Below, piece after piece: positions 3,004 through 22,735 of a stretch of DNA of 49,919 nt (position 1 is the first letter of the stretch; each line of letters starts with the position of its first letter). The translations under genes and the position numbers were made by a program. The notes beneath the pieces are model-generated. The model saw nothing but the letters and a program-made list of their open reading frames with translations. It did not search any database and was not told where the DNA came from. The stretch is from the NCBI GenBank assembly GCA_002923195.1, contig BDTH01000047.1, positions 1-49,919 of the forward strand, read 5' to 3'. The DNA is from a bacterium BMS3Abin15 (GTDB lineage Bacteria; Patescibacteriota; Minisyncoccia; Moranbacterales; 2-12-FULL-40-10).

Positions 3004-4152
3004 ATGAAAATCTTATTTTTTAACTACGAGTATCCACCATTGGGCGGAGGCGCGGCTAACGCGACCTCCTATATTTTGCGCGAATTTTCTAAAATTCCAG
3101 ATTTGGAAGTCGATTTAGTTGCCTCATCCATTGACAGCGAATATCATTTAGAAGAAATAGGAAACACCATTAAAATTCATCGTCTGCCTATTGGAAAAAA
3201 TGAGAAAAATATTCACTTTCAGTCACAAAAAGATTTACTGGTTTATGCTTGGAGGGCCTATTGGTTTTCGCGAAAGCTAGCTAAGGAGAATAATTATAAT
3301 TTGAGTCATTCATTTTTTACCGTGCCCTGTGGATTCTTATCCCTGATGTTAAAAAGAAAATTCAAGATACCATACATAGTGTCATTGCGCGGATCGGACG
3401 TTCCTGGCTACAGCGAACGATTTACTTTTTTATATAAAATTATCTCTCCCCTTGTGAAATCAATTTGGAAAAATGCTTCGCGGGTGGTTTCTAATAGCGA
3501 GGGGTTGAAAAACTTAGCTCTAAAAACCAATCCCAATCAGGAGATCGGAATTATTTACAACGGGGTTAGCACCGAAGAGTTTAAACCATCTGAAAAAGAA
3601 CAGAGCAATGGCTTTAAGATTATTTGTGTTTCTCGCATAACCGCTCGCAAAGGAATAAATTATTTAATTGAAGCGATTGATCAATTGGTTAAGAAAAATT
3701 ATAATGTTGAATTGGATATAGTGGGGGAGGGAAATGACAAGAAAAAACTCGAAAGTGTGGTTGAGAAAATGGGACTGGAAGAGCAAGTGAAATTTTTAGG
3801 CATTATTCCGCACGAGGAATTGCCAGCCATTTATAGCCAAGCGGACATCTTTGTTTTGCCTTCACTTAATGAGGGAATGAGCAATACGATGCTGGAGGCT
3901 CTAGCCAGCGGGCTTCCAATTATTGCAACTGATACGGGAGGCACCAGGGAACTTTTAAGTGGCGGAGATAACGGATTTATTGTTAAAATGAAAGACAGCG
4001 AAGATTTAATAGTAAAGATAGGCAGAATTCTGAGAGATAGTGATCTTCAAAAAAGAATGTCACAGAGAAGCCGTGAGGTAGCGGAAAGTATGAGCTGGGG
4101 GAAAGTAGCGAATAAATATTACGATTCCTATAAGTCAGTCACTAATGACTAA
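3004..4152 (+). CDS. Glycosyltransferase family 4 (GT-B)
   Basis: N-terminal YEYPPLGGG; C-terminal FVLPSLNEGMSNTMLEALASGLPII (EX7E). Confidence 0.92.
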   Translation: MKILFFNYEYPPLGGGAANATSYILREFSKIPDLEVDLVASSIDSEYHLEEIGNTIKIHRLPIGKNEKNIHFQSQKDLLVYAWRAYWFSRKLAKENNYNLSHSFFTVPCGFLSLMLKRKFKIPYIVSLRGSDVPGYSERFTFLYKIISPLVKSIWKNASRVVSNSEGLKNLALKTNPNQEIGIIYNGVSTEEFKPSEKEQSNGFKIICVSRITARKGINYLIEAIDQLVKKNYNVELDIVGEGNDKKKLESVVEKMGLEEQVKFLGIIPHEELPAIYSQADIFVLPSLNEGMSNTMLEALASGLPIIATDTGGTRELLSGGDNGFIVKMKDSEDLIVKIGRILRDSDLQKRMSQRSREVAESMSWGKVANKYYDSYKSVTND

Positions 4153-18763: not shown

Positions 18764-19129
18764 CTAATTATTAAAATCCTTATAAATTTCTTTCTTATCT
18801 TCATCATCTGAAACTCGGATGGTAATTTTTTTGTCCTCATATTCTGCGACATCAAGCTTTATGGTTCGTTTCTCACCTTTTCTGACTTCAATATCACCCT
18901 CAAGGGACGGCTTATTTTTACCTTTTATAATTGACCAGTGAAATTTATTTTTATCGCTGTGGTTTTCAATAACAAAATGCAAGTCGTCACTTTCGATGTC
19001 GTTAAAATATAAAACCCACCAGTTTTTATTATGGTCATAATCCCGCTGTCCTTGCTCAATAAATGACAAAAACATGAAACTGACCGCCAGTAATATTATT
19101 AGTGAATAAATTATAGTTTTATTGTTCAT
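18764..19129 (-). CDS. Hypothetical exported or membrane-anchored protein
   Basis: N-terminal TM then a beta-rich domain; 4-nt overlap with the upstream gene. Confidence 0.7.
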   Translation of the reverse strand: MNNKTIIYSLIILLAVSFMFLSFIEQGQRDYDHNKNWWVLYFNDIESDDLHFVIENHSDKNKFHWSIIKGKNKPSLEGDIEVRKGEKRTIKLDVAEYEDKKITIRVSDDEDKKEIYKDFNN

Positions 19130-21057
19130 ATATTTTTATAATATACTGCTATTTGTTCATTGCTATATATTTTCCAAAATTCTTTTGATTTCTCAAATTG
19201 GGAACCGTCAAAATCAGGATTGACCATTATGAAATTGGTTCCGGTTCCCTCAAAACATTTTTTGCCATTAACTGTGTTGGGAGTAGATATCATCCAAAGA
19301 GTGCACATCTCTCGCTTTTTGACCGGATCCTCATAGCGCTTGAAAAATCCGCGCGACAGAGGGTAACTGTAATCGCGCATGAAAAATAATTTAATCCAAG
19401 CATCGGCGATAATGTAATTATGGTCTTTTAAGATAACATCTTCGTTACCCGTATTATTTGCCAGGTAGTCGGAAGCATTAAAGGTTTGGACTGCTTTCTG
19501 ATACTCTCCTCTATCCTTTAATGATTGCGAATTGTCGTACAGTCCGCTTACGGCGGTAAAGGTAGCTAGAATCAAAAATAGAACATAAAGTACTCGTGCG
19601 TTTAGGTAATATTTTTTAAATTTTATATTTTTCACCTGATTGATTCCCCATACGAATGCGAAAGCACCAGCAATGGAAAGGGGATAAGAAATATAGTTGG
19701 CAATTCTATTTGATGGTATATCCAAATATAGCCACTGGGGCTTAAGAGACATTAGTAAAATTGCGACAACCCATCCTATTAAAATTGCAGAAGCGTAAGT
19801 TTTTCTTGTTCGCAATGCCAAAAGCATAAATAGTCCGATTATTCCCAGCACCATCCTAGCTTCACCAGCGGTGAATTTGAGTTGGGTAAACGTAAGTCCC
19901 GCGCGGGTGGCCTTTGAGGGTCCGCCCACGGCTGTTTCTACGGCACCAGTTTCTATATAACTGGGAGTATATACAAAGAGCGAAAAGATAAAAGTAAAAA
20001 GTAAAAAGATTATAACGGGCTTGGACCAGATGATATTCAGCCAATTGCGGGTGTATTTTATAATATTTTTTAGATTGAAAATTGTAAAAGTTAACAGTGC
20101 GAAAGCAAATACATAAACAAATACCAGGGCACTTAAGTGGTGTGTATAAAATATTCCGGCAGTGATGAATAAGGCCAGAGTTAAAAATGCAGAACTTTTT
20201 TCTTTAAGGGCGCGGAAGTAGAAATAAAGCGAAAGTGGAATAAGGAGGTTGCCCAGAATATTTCCTACTACGCCTCCACTTACGAACTTGGCCTGGGAAG
20301 AGGAGATAGTATAAAGAGGGCCTAATAGCAATAAGGCGAAAATGGAAATATTTTTCCCCTGTTCACAGTTTTTGAATAATCTAAGCGTCAGAATGAATGT
20401 TGCTAGTACTCCTAGTATATTTATCAGAAGGAGTACTAGTGAAGGAAAATAGGATATGAAGGGTATTCTAGAAATTAAATTAATGGCGGAAAATATCAGA
20501 TGTTCCCCGATAATGAAATCTGCTATTGGCTGTGGCTCACTAATTTGATAATCTCCATTATTTTCCGTAATCTCCATTTTTTCATATACTGGTAGCTCGC
20601 CAGTCTGGGAAATTTGTTTAGACCAGTACATGTGATGCCCCAAATCGGTAGAGGTGGGGAATATGGTGTTGGTTAGATAAATTGTTTTTATGAAAAGTGT
20701 GAGAAGTATAATTAAAATAATTAATATAATTTGATTTTTAGAAAAGGCCAGTTCTCTTTCTTCTCCTTCAACTATTTCTTTCTTAAATCTCTTTTTGTAG
20801 ATTCCGAAACAAGTCGCGGCGAATATTAAAATTAAAAGTAAAATAGTTACGATATTAAGAGAGATTCCAATTTTCCCTGCCAGGATCATCAGAAAGTCGA
20901 TAATAACAATGCTTAGACCAAATGATATTATGAACTTTTCCAAATCAGTAAATATTTTTCTTTTTCCCCAGGTAGCCAATATTAAAAAATATCCTGGAAC
21001 AAATAATACCAGAGCTATTGAGATGAAAAATAGAATTTGTTGAAATATAAAACTCAT
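19126..21057 (-). CDS. Large multi-pass membrane protein, probably GT-C type glycosyltransferase
   Basis: PTSTDLGHHMYWS loop motif, FYTHHLS, many TM segments, C-terminal soluble domain. Confidence 0.65.
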   Translation of the reverse strand: MSFIFQQILFFISIALVLFVPGYFLILATWGKRKIFTDLEKFIISFGLSIVIIDFLMILAGKIGISLNIVTILLLILIFAATCFGIYKKRFKKEIVEGEERELAFSKNQIILIILIILLTLFIKTIYLTNTIFPTSTDLGHHMYWSKQISQTGELPVYEKMEITENNGDYQISEPQPIADFIIGEHLIFSAINLISRIPFISYFPSLVLLLINILGVLATFILTLRLFKNCEQGKNISIFALLLLGPLYTISSSQAKFVSGGVVGNILGNLLIPLSLYFYFRALKEKSSAFLTLALFITAGIFYTHHLSALVFVYVFAFALLTFTIFNLKNIIKYTRNWLNIIWSKPVIIFLLFTFIFSLFVYTPSYIETGAVETAVGGPSKATRAGLTFTQLKFTAGEARMVLGIIGLFMLLALRTRKTYASAILIGWVVAILLMSLKPQWLYLDIPSNRIANYISYPLSIAGAFAFVWGINQVKNIKFKKYYLNARVLYVLFLILATFTAVSGLYDNSQSLKDRGEYQKAVQTFNASDYLANNTGNEDVILKDHNYIIADAWIKLFFMRDYSYPLSRGFFKRYEDPVKKREMCTLWMISTPNTVNGKKCFEGTGTNFIMVNPDFDGSQFEKSKEFWKIYSNEQIAVYYKNI

Positions 21058-21062
21058 ATTAA

Positions 21063-21158
21063 TCCTCTCCCTTTTTTAAAAGGGAGGTTAGGAGGGATTT
21101 TAGATTCTTTTTGGGCTTTCAAATCCCCCTTATACTCCCCCTTTTCTAAAGGGGGAGA
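21063..21158. repeat. CCCTTT/AAAGGG tandem-hairpin repeat
   Basis: CTCCCTTTTTTAAAAGGGAG ... CTCCCCCTTTTCTAAAGGGGGAG, with GGAGGGATTT/AAATCCCCC pairing. Confidence 0.7.
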
Positions 21159-21232
21159 CTTGCATTTAGTTGTTATAAAAATACCGTTTTTAGCTTGTTT
21201 AAGATATTTTGTTATACACCAGGCTCACACTA

Positions 21233-21261
21233 TTGACAAAAGCTTTATTATATGATAGCAT
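21233..21261 (+). promoter_or_regulatory. Putative sigma70 promoter
   Basis: TTGACA-17 nt-TAGCAT with a TG extended -10. Confidence 0.65.
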
Positions 21262-21269
21262 ACTGTAAC

Positions 21270-21376
21270 GGTGGAGTAAGGAGAGTAAAGACCCTTGCAG
21301 AGTTGTGGTGATATTTATTGCCATAGTAATGTGTGAGGCGCCATAGGCACTTCGTCAAAATTACAATCCTTCCACC
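21270..21376 (+). ncRNA. Putative structured RNA (leader or sRNA), family not recognised
   Basis: Closing helices GGTGG/CCACC and AAGGA/TCCTT; internal hairpin TGTGGTGATA/TATTGCCATA; GTAAT/ATTAC and GAGG/CTTC stems with a GCC-ATA-GGC cap; starts at the predicted +1. Confidence 0.45.
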
Positions 21377-21428
21377 AATAATTTATCTAAAGTTCCCCAT
21401 CACATATTATTTAAAGGAGGTAACTGCA

Positions 21429-21473
21429 ATGTACCGACAAGTCTTGCAAACTTGCCCAGCGGGTGGTACATAG
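21429..21473 (+). CDS. 14-aa peptide MYRQVLQTCPAGGT (not in ORF track)
   Basis: AAAGGAGGT SD 8 nt upstream of ATG, followed by a terminator. Confidence 0.45.
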   Translation: MYRQVLQTCPAGGT

Positions 21474-21483
21474 TACCGCCAGC

Positions 21484-21518
21484 CCCCTAGGTCGTAATGA
21501 TCTAGGGGATTTTCTTTT
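21484..21518 (+). terminator. Rho-independent terminator
   Basis: CCCCTAG-GTCGTAATGAT-CTAGGGG then a T-rich tail. Confidence 0.7.
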
Positions 21519-21541
21519 GTCAAAATTTCGATTTACATTAC

Positions 21542-21596
21542 TGTCATTCCGGATATAGATCCGGAATCTAGATTCTGAATTTAATTCAGAATGACA
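21542..21596. repeat. TGTCAT...ATGACA double-hairpin repeat (intergenic)
   Basis: TGTCATTCCGGATATAGATCCGGAATCTAGATTCTGAATTTAATTCAGAATGACA. Confidence 0.8.
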
Positions 21597-21619
21597 TAAT
21601 TCAATTTACTAGTTACAAG

Positions 21620-22735
21620 TTACTGATTACTAGTTATTTTCTGTATTTCCTCTAAATATCTTTTGGCAATCTTATCCCAGCTATAATTTTCAATTACAAA
21701 CTGCCGGGATTTTTCACCGAATTCTTTTCTAAAATTATCGTCGGCTAACAACTCGTTGATTTTATGAACGTAGACCTGCCTCGACGGTAGGCGGGTATCA
21801 ACATCATCCATTTCAATTAAAAATCCATTCTGTCCGTCTTTGATTGCATCTTGCAATCCCTCAAGCCGAGAAGCAATTACCGGAAGGCGGCAGGATCCGG
21901 CTTCGATTACTGAAATTCCGAAACCCTCCATATCTCCCTCGATTATTATATTGGGCTGAATGAATAAATCACAGGTGTTGAATAATATATTTCTGACTTT
22001 GTCGCTTACGTATCCAAGCATCTTAACTCTATCGGACAGATTATTTTTCTTGATAGCATTTTTAATGTTTTCTTTGTCGGGCCCGTCTCCGACAACAACA
22101 TAGGTTATGTTCTCGGGCAGCCCTGGCATTACATTACCAATAAACCAGGCCACGCCTTTTCTTTTAGCCAGCCGTCCGGATGTAAGCAATACTTTTCTGT
22201 TTTCTAAATTATCACTCAAAATTTTCTTTAAGTCATTTCTTGAATAATTTCCTAAATTTTTTTCTGTGTCTACGCCATTGGGGATAAAAACAAACTTATC
22301 TTCATAAATTCCTTTTTTTACCCCGACTCTTATGGTTTCGTTTCCCACGGCGATTAGCTTGTCGCATTTTTTAATAAATATTTCCACCCATAATTTTTGG
22401 AATAAGCTCATTTTATAGGTAAGGTCCAACCCGTGAACAATGGATACAACAGGTTTTTTGTAGAGCAATTTTACAAACCACCCTATAACACCTAACACGC
22501 CATCACCCAAAAGAAGCACATCGTATTTTCTGAACAAAAACAGCGCTCGAACAAGAGCGTAAGGAGCAAATATCGGAAGAAAAATCTTGCCACGGGTATT
22601 GGCTATGGTCTTAACATCGGCAATTTTCGAAAGCCACCTGGAAAGTTCATAATTCTGGCTTTCAATCCCGCCAACAGTAGGGGGATAAGCCCGGGAGATA
22701 AAAAGAATTTTTACCCTGTTAGATTTTTGCGCCAT
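21620..22735 (-). CDS. Glycosyltransferase family 4 (PimB-like)
   Basis: SRAYPPTVGGIE; DMEGFGISVIEAGSCRLPVIAS. Confidence 0.92.
   Translation of the reverse strand: MAQKSNRVKILFISRAYPPTVGGIESQNYELSRWLSKIADVKTIANTRGKIFLPIFAPYALVRALFLFRKYDVLLLGDGVLGVIGWFVKLLYKKPVVSIVHGLDLTYKMSLFQKLWVEIFIKKCDKLIAVGNETIRVGVKKGIYEDKFVFIPNGVDTEKNLGNYSRNDLKKILSDNLENRKVLLTSGRLAKRKGVAWFIGNVMPGLPENITYVVVGDGPDKENIKNAIKKNNLSDRVKMLGYVSDKVRNILFNTCDLFIQPNIIIEGDMEGFGISVIEAGSCRLPVIASRLEGLQDAIKDGQNGFLIEMDDVDTRLPSRQVYVHKINELLADDNFRKEFGEKSRQFVIENYSWDKIAKRYLEEIQKITSNQ
21774..21796. repeat. CCTGCC/GGCGGG hairpin repeat in frame in GT4
   Basis: ACCTGCCTCGACGGTAGGCGGGT; encodes TRLPSRQV on the minus strand. Confidence 0.6.

Follow-up and report, generated by a model that had tools for sequence, protein, structure and literature searches.

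A putative small RNA gene lying opposite a surface-glycan operon in a Moranbacteria-type bacterium

Results

The largest non-coding gap (positions 21058-21619, 562 nt) of the window, which is the whole 49,919-nt stretch of DNA that was analyzed, houses a promoter, a structured 5' domain, a linker and a terminator that together resemble a small RNA gene. We give about an even chance to the reading that this unit is an independent non-coding RNA gene of about 250 nt (about 21268-21518, plus strand), that it belongs to a lineage-restricted family lying antisense in a surface-glycan operon of a Moranbacteria-type clade, and that its product acts in cis, the last suggested by its position. The preliminary description of this DNA had proposed a self-contained transcription unit with a structured small RNA, and the recurrence of the promoter, the 5' helix and the terminator in six related lineages agrees with that proposal.

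The window belongs to contig C47 of a 1.22-Mb genome that is 89% complete. The gap lies between two minus-strand genes of a surface-glycan cluster, which encode a GT4 glycosyltransferase and a DUF6541/DUF1616 membrane protein, and nearby genes include a GT2 gene, a UDP-sugar dehydrogenase gene, further GT4 genes and an RtcB-like gene. The unit is on the plus strand, antisense to the surrounding minus-strand operon, and runs head-on into the GT4 gene. The next plus-strand open reading frame (ORF) of at least 90 aa begins at 25701, 4 kb away, and no plus-strand gene that the unit could control was found downstream of it. The following features were recognized.

19126-21057, minus strand: gene for a DUF6541/DUF1616 membrane protein of 643 aa, in the surface-glycan cluster, flanking the gap
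21211-21239, minus strand: putative divergent promoter directed toward the DUF6541-like gene, with a -35 TTGTCA (reverse complement of 21234-21239), a 17-nt spacer and a -10 TATAAC (reverse complement of 21211-21216)
21233-21261, plus strand: predicted sigma-70-type promoter of the RNA gene, with TTGACA (21233-21238), a 17-nt spacer, TAGCAT (21256-21261) and an extended -10 TG
21270-21376, plus strand: 5' domain of 107 nt, closed by helix P1, GGUGGAG (21270-21276) with UUCCACC (21370-21376)
21377-21412, plus strand: A/U-rich, mostly unpaired linker (AAUAAUUUAUCUAAAGUUCCCCAUCAC...), containing AAAGUUC
21413-21421, plus strand: SD-like word AAAGGAGGU (DNA AAAGGAGGT), paired in the minimum-energy fold
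21429-21473, plus strand: 14-codon ORF, from ATG (21429) to TAG (ending at 21473), product MYRQVLQTCPAGGT, with the SD-like word 7 nt before the ATG
21462-21480, plus strand: hairpin GGUGGUAC-AUA-GUACCGCC, directly before the terminator
21484-21518, plus strand: intrinsic terminator, with an 11-bp stem (21484-21508) of CCCCUAGGUC / GAUCUAGGGG, followed by the U run AUUUUCUUUU
21514-21523, without strand: CTTTTGTCAA, which repeats TTGACAAAAG (21233-21242) perfectly in inverted orientation over 10 nt, the two copies bracketing the unit exactly
21620-22735, minus strand: GT4 glycosyltransferase gene, in the surface-glycan cluster, flanking the gap

The unit is single-copy in its own genome (G000), and a search of that genome revealed no extra copy of it or of the combination of its promoter and motif. 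On either side of the unit (21121-21156 and 21542-21596) lie repeated palindromic elements, and the genome is full of palindromic mini-elements. Stretches complementary to the unit elsewhere in the genome did not exceed 13-17 nt, as chance would predict. A gene for RNase III is present in the genome, and no minus-strand terminator was detected within the gap (21058-21619).

The promoter TTGACA-17-TAGCAT was present where the preliminary description had placed it and was the best promoter-like site in 20800-22000. It matches at 10 of 12 positions, has an upstream TG and predicts a transcription start near 21268. The pattern TTGACA-N14-TGnTAnnWT occurs at 25 sites in the 1.22-Mb genome, the one at 21233 included, and is evidently the canonical strong gene promoter of the organism, since an ORF of at least 50 aa lies within about 300 nt downstream of 23 of the 25 sites, roughly half with a clear SD. 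At the 21233 site, no ORF of at least 50 aa was found within 600 nt. Alignment on the -35 showed that TTGACA-17-TGnTAnnAT was kept in all seven lineages that carry the unit. The promoter block was the sole significant similarity between the unit studied here and that of G001, which is the only family-mate among the species representatives.

A scan of 20800-22000 detected no minus-strand promoter-like site. The sole minus-strand candidate, spotted by hand at 21239-21211, is directed away from the unit. The -35 base pairs of this putative divergent promoter are common with those of the plus-strand promoter (back-to-back, TTGACAA/TTGTCAA), and the two predicted starts are about 65 bp apart. The minus promoter reads TTGTCA-17-TGaTACAAT in G001 and L175 and TTGTCA-17-TGaTAGGCT in L178 and L180; in this genome it is weak, its TATAAC having no final T of the -10. 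The seventh base of TTGACAA, an A that only the minus-strand -35 needs, was kept in all seven units at the GT4/DUF6541 junction, and is G in four units that have no adjoining divergent gene. In L181, which has no RNA unit, the minus-promoter half was retained almost letter for letter and the plus-strand elements had decayed to TTGCCA and TTTGCTTTAGG, suggesting that the plus promoter is maintained only where there is an RNA to be made.

The 107-nt multi-stem fold that had been described at the predicted start occupies exactly 21270-21376, with a predicted energy of -37 kcal/mol (z = -3.6) that none of 200 shuffles equaled. Folding of the reverse complement of the domain was weaker, at -26.6 kcal/mol (z = -1.6), and in one hairpin the opposite strand would have C-A mismatches in place of three G-U pairs; for these reasons we take the plus strand to be the RNA strand. 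Helix P1 starts 2-3 nt past the predicted transcription start, which would tuck the 5' end into a stem, and encloses a local hairpin and two further hairpins in a predicted multi-way junction. The related units have a purine-rich block with an invariant GUGG a few nucleotides past the predicted start (28 nt in L176 and about 190 nt in L177). The consensus of this block is UUGARRGUGGRG in five of seven units, and it pairs with a downstream CCAC block, closing a domain of 70-200 nt.

P1 was assessed in an alignment of nine units, comprising the seven at the GT4/DUF6541 junction and two tandem units of L175 at the next junction. The 7-bp core of P1 was paired in 62 of 63 cells of this alignment, which was anchored by hand on GUGG and CCAC and thus favors the helix. 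The pair preceding GUGG was AU in four units, GC in three, GU in one and UA in one, and the pair following it was GC in four, AU in three and CG in two. The covariation score of P1 was 0.387, compared with 0.215 +/- 0.038 for shuffles (0 of 500 reached 0.387) and 0.167 or less for controls with slid partners, and is supportive rather than conclusive because of the hand anchoring and because three of the nine units come from one contig. P1 thus appears to be held by compensatory changes on both sides. The domain of every relative folded with P1 closed, usually as a three-way junction, with z from -2.6 to -6.7. The interior of the domain could not be aligned between relatives, though it was strongly structured throughout; between L178 and L180 it was wholly unalignable despite 84% identity in the neighboring gene and 82% in a 3' extension. 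The conserved inverted repeat GUGG/CCAC could equally be a feature of the DNA, such as the ends of an element or a recombination site.

The AAAGUUC of the linker resembles a AAAAAGUUCUUUA block kept in L175, L178 and L180, and no conserved block beyond P1 and AAAGUUC was found among the units of the relatives. The SD-like word, the 14-codon ORF and the strong terminator were all found as first described. The frame extends an ORF begun at GTG 21333 and stops at UAG 21471-21473, and the terminator stem begins 10 nt past the stop. The genome has 45 copies of the word AAAGGAGGT, 10 of them ahead of ORFs shorter than 30 aa and 13 without a start codon, and given these counts the SD with its tiny ORF carries little weight. 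G001, L175a, L176, L178 and L180 have no SD and ORF at a comparable place and no peptide like MYRQVLQTCPAGGT, which itself has no hydrophobic stretch and none of the repeated or rare residues of attenuator leaders. Most likely, this 14-codon frame arose by chance, and it is probably not a gene. The preliminary description had counted on relatives with either compensatory changes or a conserved ORF; the former were found in P1, but the ORF was not conserved. By eye, SD-like words were also seen in the linkers of several relatives. A unit in the second gap of L175 has AGGAG, 5 nt and an ATG that opens a 27-codon frame running through its terminator.

The terminator is one-directional, the minus strand having no T run. 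All related units terminate in a hairpin and a T run, and the terminators of L178 and L180 begin with (A)GCCCC, as in this genome. The hairpin that precedes the terminator has an analog with an AUA loop in G001 (GGAUGU-AUA-ACAUCC), as judged by eye from the two sequences. No perfect counterpart of the bracketing 10-nt repeat was found in G001, and the repeat may be due to chance or be a trace of cassette ends. A miniature mobile element (a MITE-like cassette) would be expected to have terminal inverted repeats, a target-site duplication and more than one copy in the genome; this unit has the bracketing repeat and a single copy. The RNA had also been suggested to switch between alternative pairings. 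The pairings named, ATGTACC/GGTACAT, GGTGGTAC-ATA-GTACCGCC and TTGCAG/CTGCAA, are all present in the sequence, but pairings of 6-7 nt are at the chance level (by our own estimate, about two such complementarities are expected per 250 nt) and were absent from the relatives, and switching was left unsupported.

The RNA had been said to match no known family, and the searches concurred. Rfam 15 gave no match at the gathering score in the window and none of relevance in G001 and eight related loci, and with E values up to 10 gave only chance-level matches to miRNA or sRNA families in 21050-21650. A covariance model (R1) made from the single sequence and fold of the 5' domain yielded only chance matches among 319 genomes of the order and all syntenic loci and recovered no relative; two weak matches lay within an ORF (L003) and over an unrelated terminator (L004). 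A tRNA or tmRNA was rejected, as ARAGORN found none in any gap, and so was a pseudogene remnant, as long frames in the gaps had no Pfam match. The tmRNA of the genome is at C35:39229-39667 and the RNase P RNA at C96:16970-17368. Neither bacterial model detected SRP RNA in G000 or G001, and a look-alike on contig C24 was unconfirmed. The unit was rejected as the missing SRP RNA, since no domain IV motif was found in it by eye and the family is absent from nearly the whole order.

Throughout the order, the DUF6541 gene is conserved as a single copy, and a GT4 gene normally lies directly upstream of it. The gap between the two genes is -8 to 135 nt in 21 of the 23 other relatives examined and long (238-990 nt) in G000 (562 nt), G001 (387 nt), L175 (562 nt), L176 (238 nt), L177 (620 nt), L178 (more than 900 nt) and L180 (about 990 nt). 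All of these long-gap lineages have a plus-oriented unit at this junction, antisense to the operon. The closer relatives, found by protein search, are labelled Patescibacteria or Candidatus Moranbacteria. The unit was absent from the close relatives L179, L181 and L182, whose gaps are 4-103 nt, and appears to be a clade-specific insertion at the GT4/DUF6541 junction. Of the 319 genomes of the order, 317 had no match to the promoter-plus-motif pattern of the unit; the two matches were the known unit of G001 and one in G224 that looks like chance. A metagenome scan with the DUF6541 protein revealed no relative above 59% identity and the gap only in a duplicate of G001. The promoter pattern matched more than 120 times in a scan of wider genome contigs, mostly in Clostridia; these matches were generic strong promoters, some before tRNAs or a lysine riboswitch, and were uninformative on homology.

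L178 and L180 share a 560-nt 3' extension of the RNA, which is 82% identical between them compared with 84% for the neighboring coding DNA. This extension has no intact shared ORF (that of L180 has a frameshift and a stop) and no Pfam match, and pair-preserving changes were seen in it by eye; the extension, at least, is apparently constrained RNA. L178 has in addition a 100-nt hairpin insert that is missing from L180. Further antisense units with a promoter, an RNA and a terminator were found in G001, L175, L178 and L180 at a second junction of the same cluster, between the gene for a protein of about 120 aa (123 aa in L175) and a GT4 gene, where L175 has two tandem units with the GUGG/CCAC frame. 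A different kind of unit (type B), with a GGUUCAAAUCC hairpin like a tRNA T-arm, occurs at this second junction in G001 and at the GT4/DUF6541 junction in L180. The second-junction units share with the unit of this genome the gene cluster, the antisense orientation and the framing of a fast-changing body by promoter and terminator; the latter unit is distinguished by its GT4/DUF6541 location, its GUGG/CCAC closing helix and its shared -35. The relatives carry two or three units per cluster and this genome one, and all known units are antisense within the same gene cluster.

Discussion

On present evidence, the unit is nothing out of the ordinary: an orphan gene for a small RNA, from a new and narrow family. 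GadY of Escherichia coli, a cis-encoded antisense sRNA in the gadX-gadW intergenic region, offers a comparison. Like GadY, the unit has its own promoter and terminator on the strand opposite the spacer between co-directional genes, and in the majority of relatives the GT4 gene directly adjoins or overlaps the DUF6541 gene on the same strand. As read from sequence, a promoter and an intrinsic terminator of its own are present and a protein product is not. The unit is also fully complementary to any mRNA that reads through the spacer, and RNase III is encoded in this genome. It differs from GadY in having no sequence or Rfam relationship to it, in its length of about 250 nt, in its large 5' junction domain and in a -35 that is common with the promoter of the downstream gene. 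Leader-peptide attenuators such as pyrBI and the trp leaders have a short ORF that ends just before an intrinsic terminator, as does the short ORF of the unit; unlike them, the unit controls no downstream gene and its ORF is not conserved and has no regulatory codons. In the bidirectional promoters that have been described, the symmetry reportedly lies in overlapping -10 elements, whereas the two promoters here are back-to-back and share a -35 in place of overlapping -10 elements. Work on bidirectional bacterial promoters describes pseudo-symmetrical DNA from which transcription starts both ways, with RNA polymerase bound for one direction excluding the other (Warman et al., bioRxiv 10.1101/2020.01.31.928960; PMC12825309).

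The RNA probably acts in cis on the opposed operon, possibly with promoter competition. Cis action is suggested by the position opposite the spacer of normally co-transcribed genes, the lack of a minus-strand terminator, the presence of RNase III and the shared -35. As the search of the gap revealed no terminator on the minus strand, an operon transcript extending from GT4 into DUF6541 would contain the perfect complement of the RNA. RNase III would cut the duplex of sRNA and mRNA, and the cutting would uncouple the two halves of the operon in the manner of GadY. Because the promoters share one -35, the two directions would compete for RNA polymerase; polymerase bound there in one direction would exclude the other, and DUF6541 expression would thereby be coupled to the RNA promoter. 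The one-way terminator would halt the transcript short of the converging GT4 gene. A body that changes freely fits a cis-antisense RNA, and it also fits a functionless transcript.

A functionless transcript would arise if the bidirectional promoter were what matters, giving DUF6541 a start of its own after an insertion had split the operon, and if the plus-strand transcript were a graveyard of hairpin elements that is terminated to avoid collision with GT4. We regard this as possible but fairly unlikely. It would account for the lack of conservation in the RNA body, and it is in keeping with the abundance of palindromic mini-elements in the genome (two flank the unit), the hairpin insert of L178 that L180 does not have, the perfect 10-nt inverted repeat around the unit, the loss of the unit in L181 and its absence from close relatives. 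However, the plus promoter exceeds the minus promoter both in its match to consensus and in its conservation, and it is the plus promoter that decays after loss of the RNA in L181, the opposite of what this explanation predicts. The covariation of P1 and the coding-like conservation of the L178/L180 extension also speak against it, as does the single-copy body, which is thus not built of known repeats. Another possibility is a regulatory or protein-binding sRNA that works in trans, its Y-shaped 5' domain and A/U-rich linker, with SD-like or C-rich words, binding a protein or distant mRNAs, so that its position in the operon would be incidental. A strong promoter, a 5' stem, a terminator and an unpaired linker would suit such an RNA, a junction-like architecture recurs despite turnover of the sequence, and the linkers of several relatives have SD-like words by eye. 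Nevertheless, complementarity elsewhere in the genome stays within the 13-17 nt expected by chance, a seed would be expected to be conserved and nothing beyond P1 and AAAGUUC is, and all known units lie antisense in one gene cluster, making action in trans quite improbable.

Two explanations involve the 3' part of the RNA more directly. If the 14-codon ORF were translated, a ribosome at UAG 21471-21473 would cover the 5' half of the terminator stem and cause read-through into the GT4, GT2 and dehydrogenase genes, with the frequency set by the leader fold or by pairing of the SD. The geometry fits: 7 nt separate the SD from the ATG, and 10 nt separate the stop codon from the terminator stem. 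Access to the SD could be regulated, as this word is paired in the minimum-energy fold, and the second-gap unit of L175 (AGGAG-5-ATG) has its 27-codon frame through the terminator. Such a switch is nonetheless highly improbable, given that SD and ORF are absent from G001, L175a, L176, L178 and L180, that the peptide has none of the repeated or rare residues typical of attenuator leaders and that the SD word often occurs by chance in this genome. The preliminary description had likened the RNA to a riboswitch or a type I toxin mRNA, and neither likeness was supported. A ligand-sensing riboswitch, a T-box-like leader or a toxin mRNA might likewise combine a 5' domain of several stems with alternative short pairings and a terminator, and GGGUGGUAC (21461-21469) resembles the T-box sequence; this word is part of a simple hairpin. 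A riboswitch is disfavored because no core is conserved in the seven lineages, R1 recovers no relative, Rfam gives no match even at E = 10 and the next plus-strand gene is 4 kb off. A T-box leader is disfavored for want of a match to RF00230 at E values up to 10 and of a downstream gene, and a type I toxin because the peptide has no hydrophobic stretch and is not conserved, the relatives have no conserved SD and ORF, and the scan of 20800-22000 gave no antisense promoter-like site on the minus strand. We give almost no credence to any of the three.

Cis action of an antisense RNA gene remains our preferred reading, and the units found at several junctions in the relatives suggest a further idea, that of exchangeable cassettes. 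These would be of a previously undescribed kind, in which a conserved frame of outward promoter, GUGG/CCAC helix, linker and terminator surrounds an exchangeable, hypervariable RNA cargo. The cassettes would duplicate, move between junctions and swap cargo by recombination in the frame, and diversifying selection would act on the cargo and not only on its being transcribed, for instance through a conflict with phages that have the glycan as their receptor. We consider this idea speculative and rather improbable.

Patescibacteria have tiny genomes in which gene regulation and non-coding RNAs are almost unexplored, and the unit provides a concrete case that can be tested. It is unusual for a conserved helix to enclose an interior that changes freely; this arrangement ties the unit to those at the second junction and hints at a family of exchangeable RNA cassettes. 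If cis-antisense action or promoter competition proved true, a minimal genome would have a means to divide an operon and adjust its expression with no regulatory protein.

Elements flanking the RNA unit and related loci

The predicted antisense small-RNA gene (RNA unit) of the window lies between a glycosyltransferase (GT4) gene and a membrane-protein (DUF6541) gene, and palindromic elements were found on both sides of it. Related loci from other genomes carry further RNA units, a 3' extension of the RNA or, in L181, the junction without a unit, and all of these features are listed below.

Features at the GT4/DUF6541 junction and at related loci
Window 21058-21165; L175 2395-2500: nested pair of palindromic elements (CCCTTTTTTAAAAGGGAGG... 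/ CTCCCCCTTTTCTAAAGGGGGAG) within the DUF6541 5' untranslated region
Window 21542-21596: double-hairpin element TGTCATTC...GAATGACA between the terminator of the RNA unit and the stop codon of GT4
L181 2357-2459: GT4/DUF6541 promoter region without an RNA unit
L175 4990-5560 (-): tandem pair of units, each closed by the same GUGG/CCAC helix, at the junction of a 123-aa gene and GT4
L178 98-640 (-) and L180 397-935 (-): 3' extension of the RNA, roughly 560 nt and GC-richer
L007 890-1110 (+), in the family-mate genome G001, and L180 349 to about 140 (-): second-type antisense promoter-RNA-terminator unit

The purine-rich stretch directly 5' of the DUF6541 ATG in the window is contributed by the nested palindromic elements. 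The same palindromic insertion is present in the related locus L175 at 76% identity and is hence old and common to both loci. On the other side of the unit, the GT4 stop codon directly adjoins the RNA terminator in relatives, and it is the double-hairpin element, copies of which are carried by contigs C35 and C79 of the source genome (G000), that intervenes in the window. The relative L181 is a natural deletion control for the RNA unit: the DUF6541-side half of its promoter region is kept and the RNA-side -35 and -10 are decayed (TTGCCA, TTTGCTTTAGG).

The first of the tandem units in L175 contains AGGAG-5-ATG followed by a 27-codon frame that extends through the unit's own terminator. In the second type of antisense unit, a GGUAUUGAAGUUC...GCAAGCGCUUGC hairpin is followed by a tRNA T-arm-like CUUGGUUCAAAUCCAAG between CCCUG and CAGGG, and the gene junction that it occupies differs between G001 and L180. 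ARAGORN called no tRNA in this unit, and Rfam gave no match in the searched regions (L007, the part 3400-3850, and the L180 locus).

The 3' extensions of L178 and L180 are 82% identical, on par with the adjoining coding DNA. An 82-aa frame within the extension is open in L178; in L180, both a frameshift and a stop codon disrupt it. The extension is likely a larger structured RNA outside any known family.

Genome-wide promoters and housekeeping RNAs

The sole other strong consensus promoter in G000 without an ORF of at least 50 aa within 600 nt downstream was at C17:5566 (+); by eye, it may sit within a coding region.

The bacterial SRP RNA models (RF00169, small; RF01854, large) gave no match at E <= 0.001 in the whole of G000 or G001; in contrast, tmRNA and RNase P RNA were found. 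An SRP RNA look-alike in G000, GGAAGGCAGCA at C24:~16593, was unconfirmed by Rfam. The G000 tmRNA lies at C35:39229-39667 and scored 125 bits with the Rfam tmRNA model, and ARAGORN reported no tmRNA over the entire G000 genome. The tmRNA of this bacterium is present, yet atypical enough for ARAGORN to miss.
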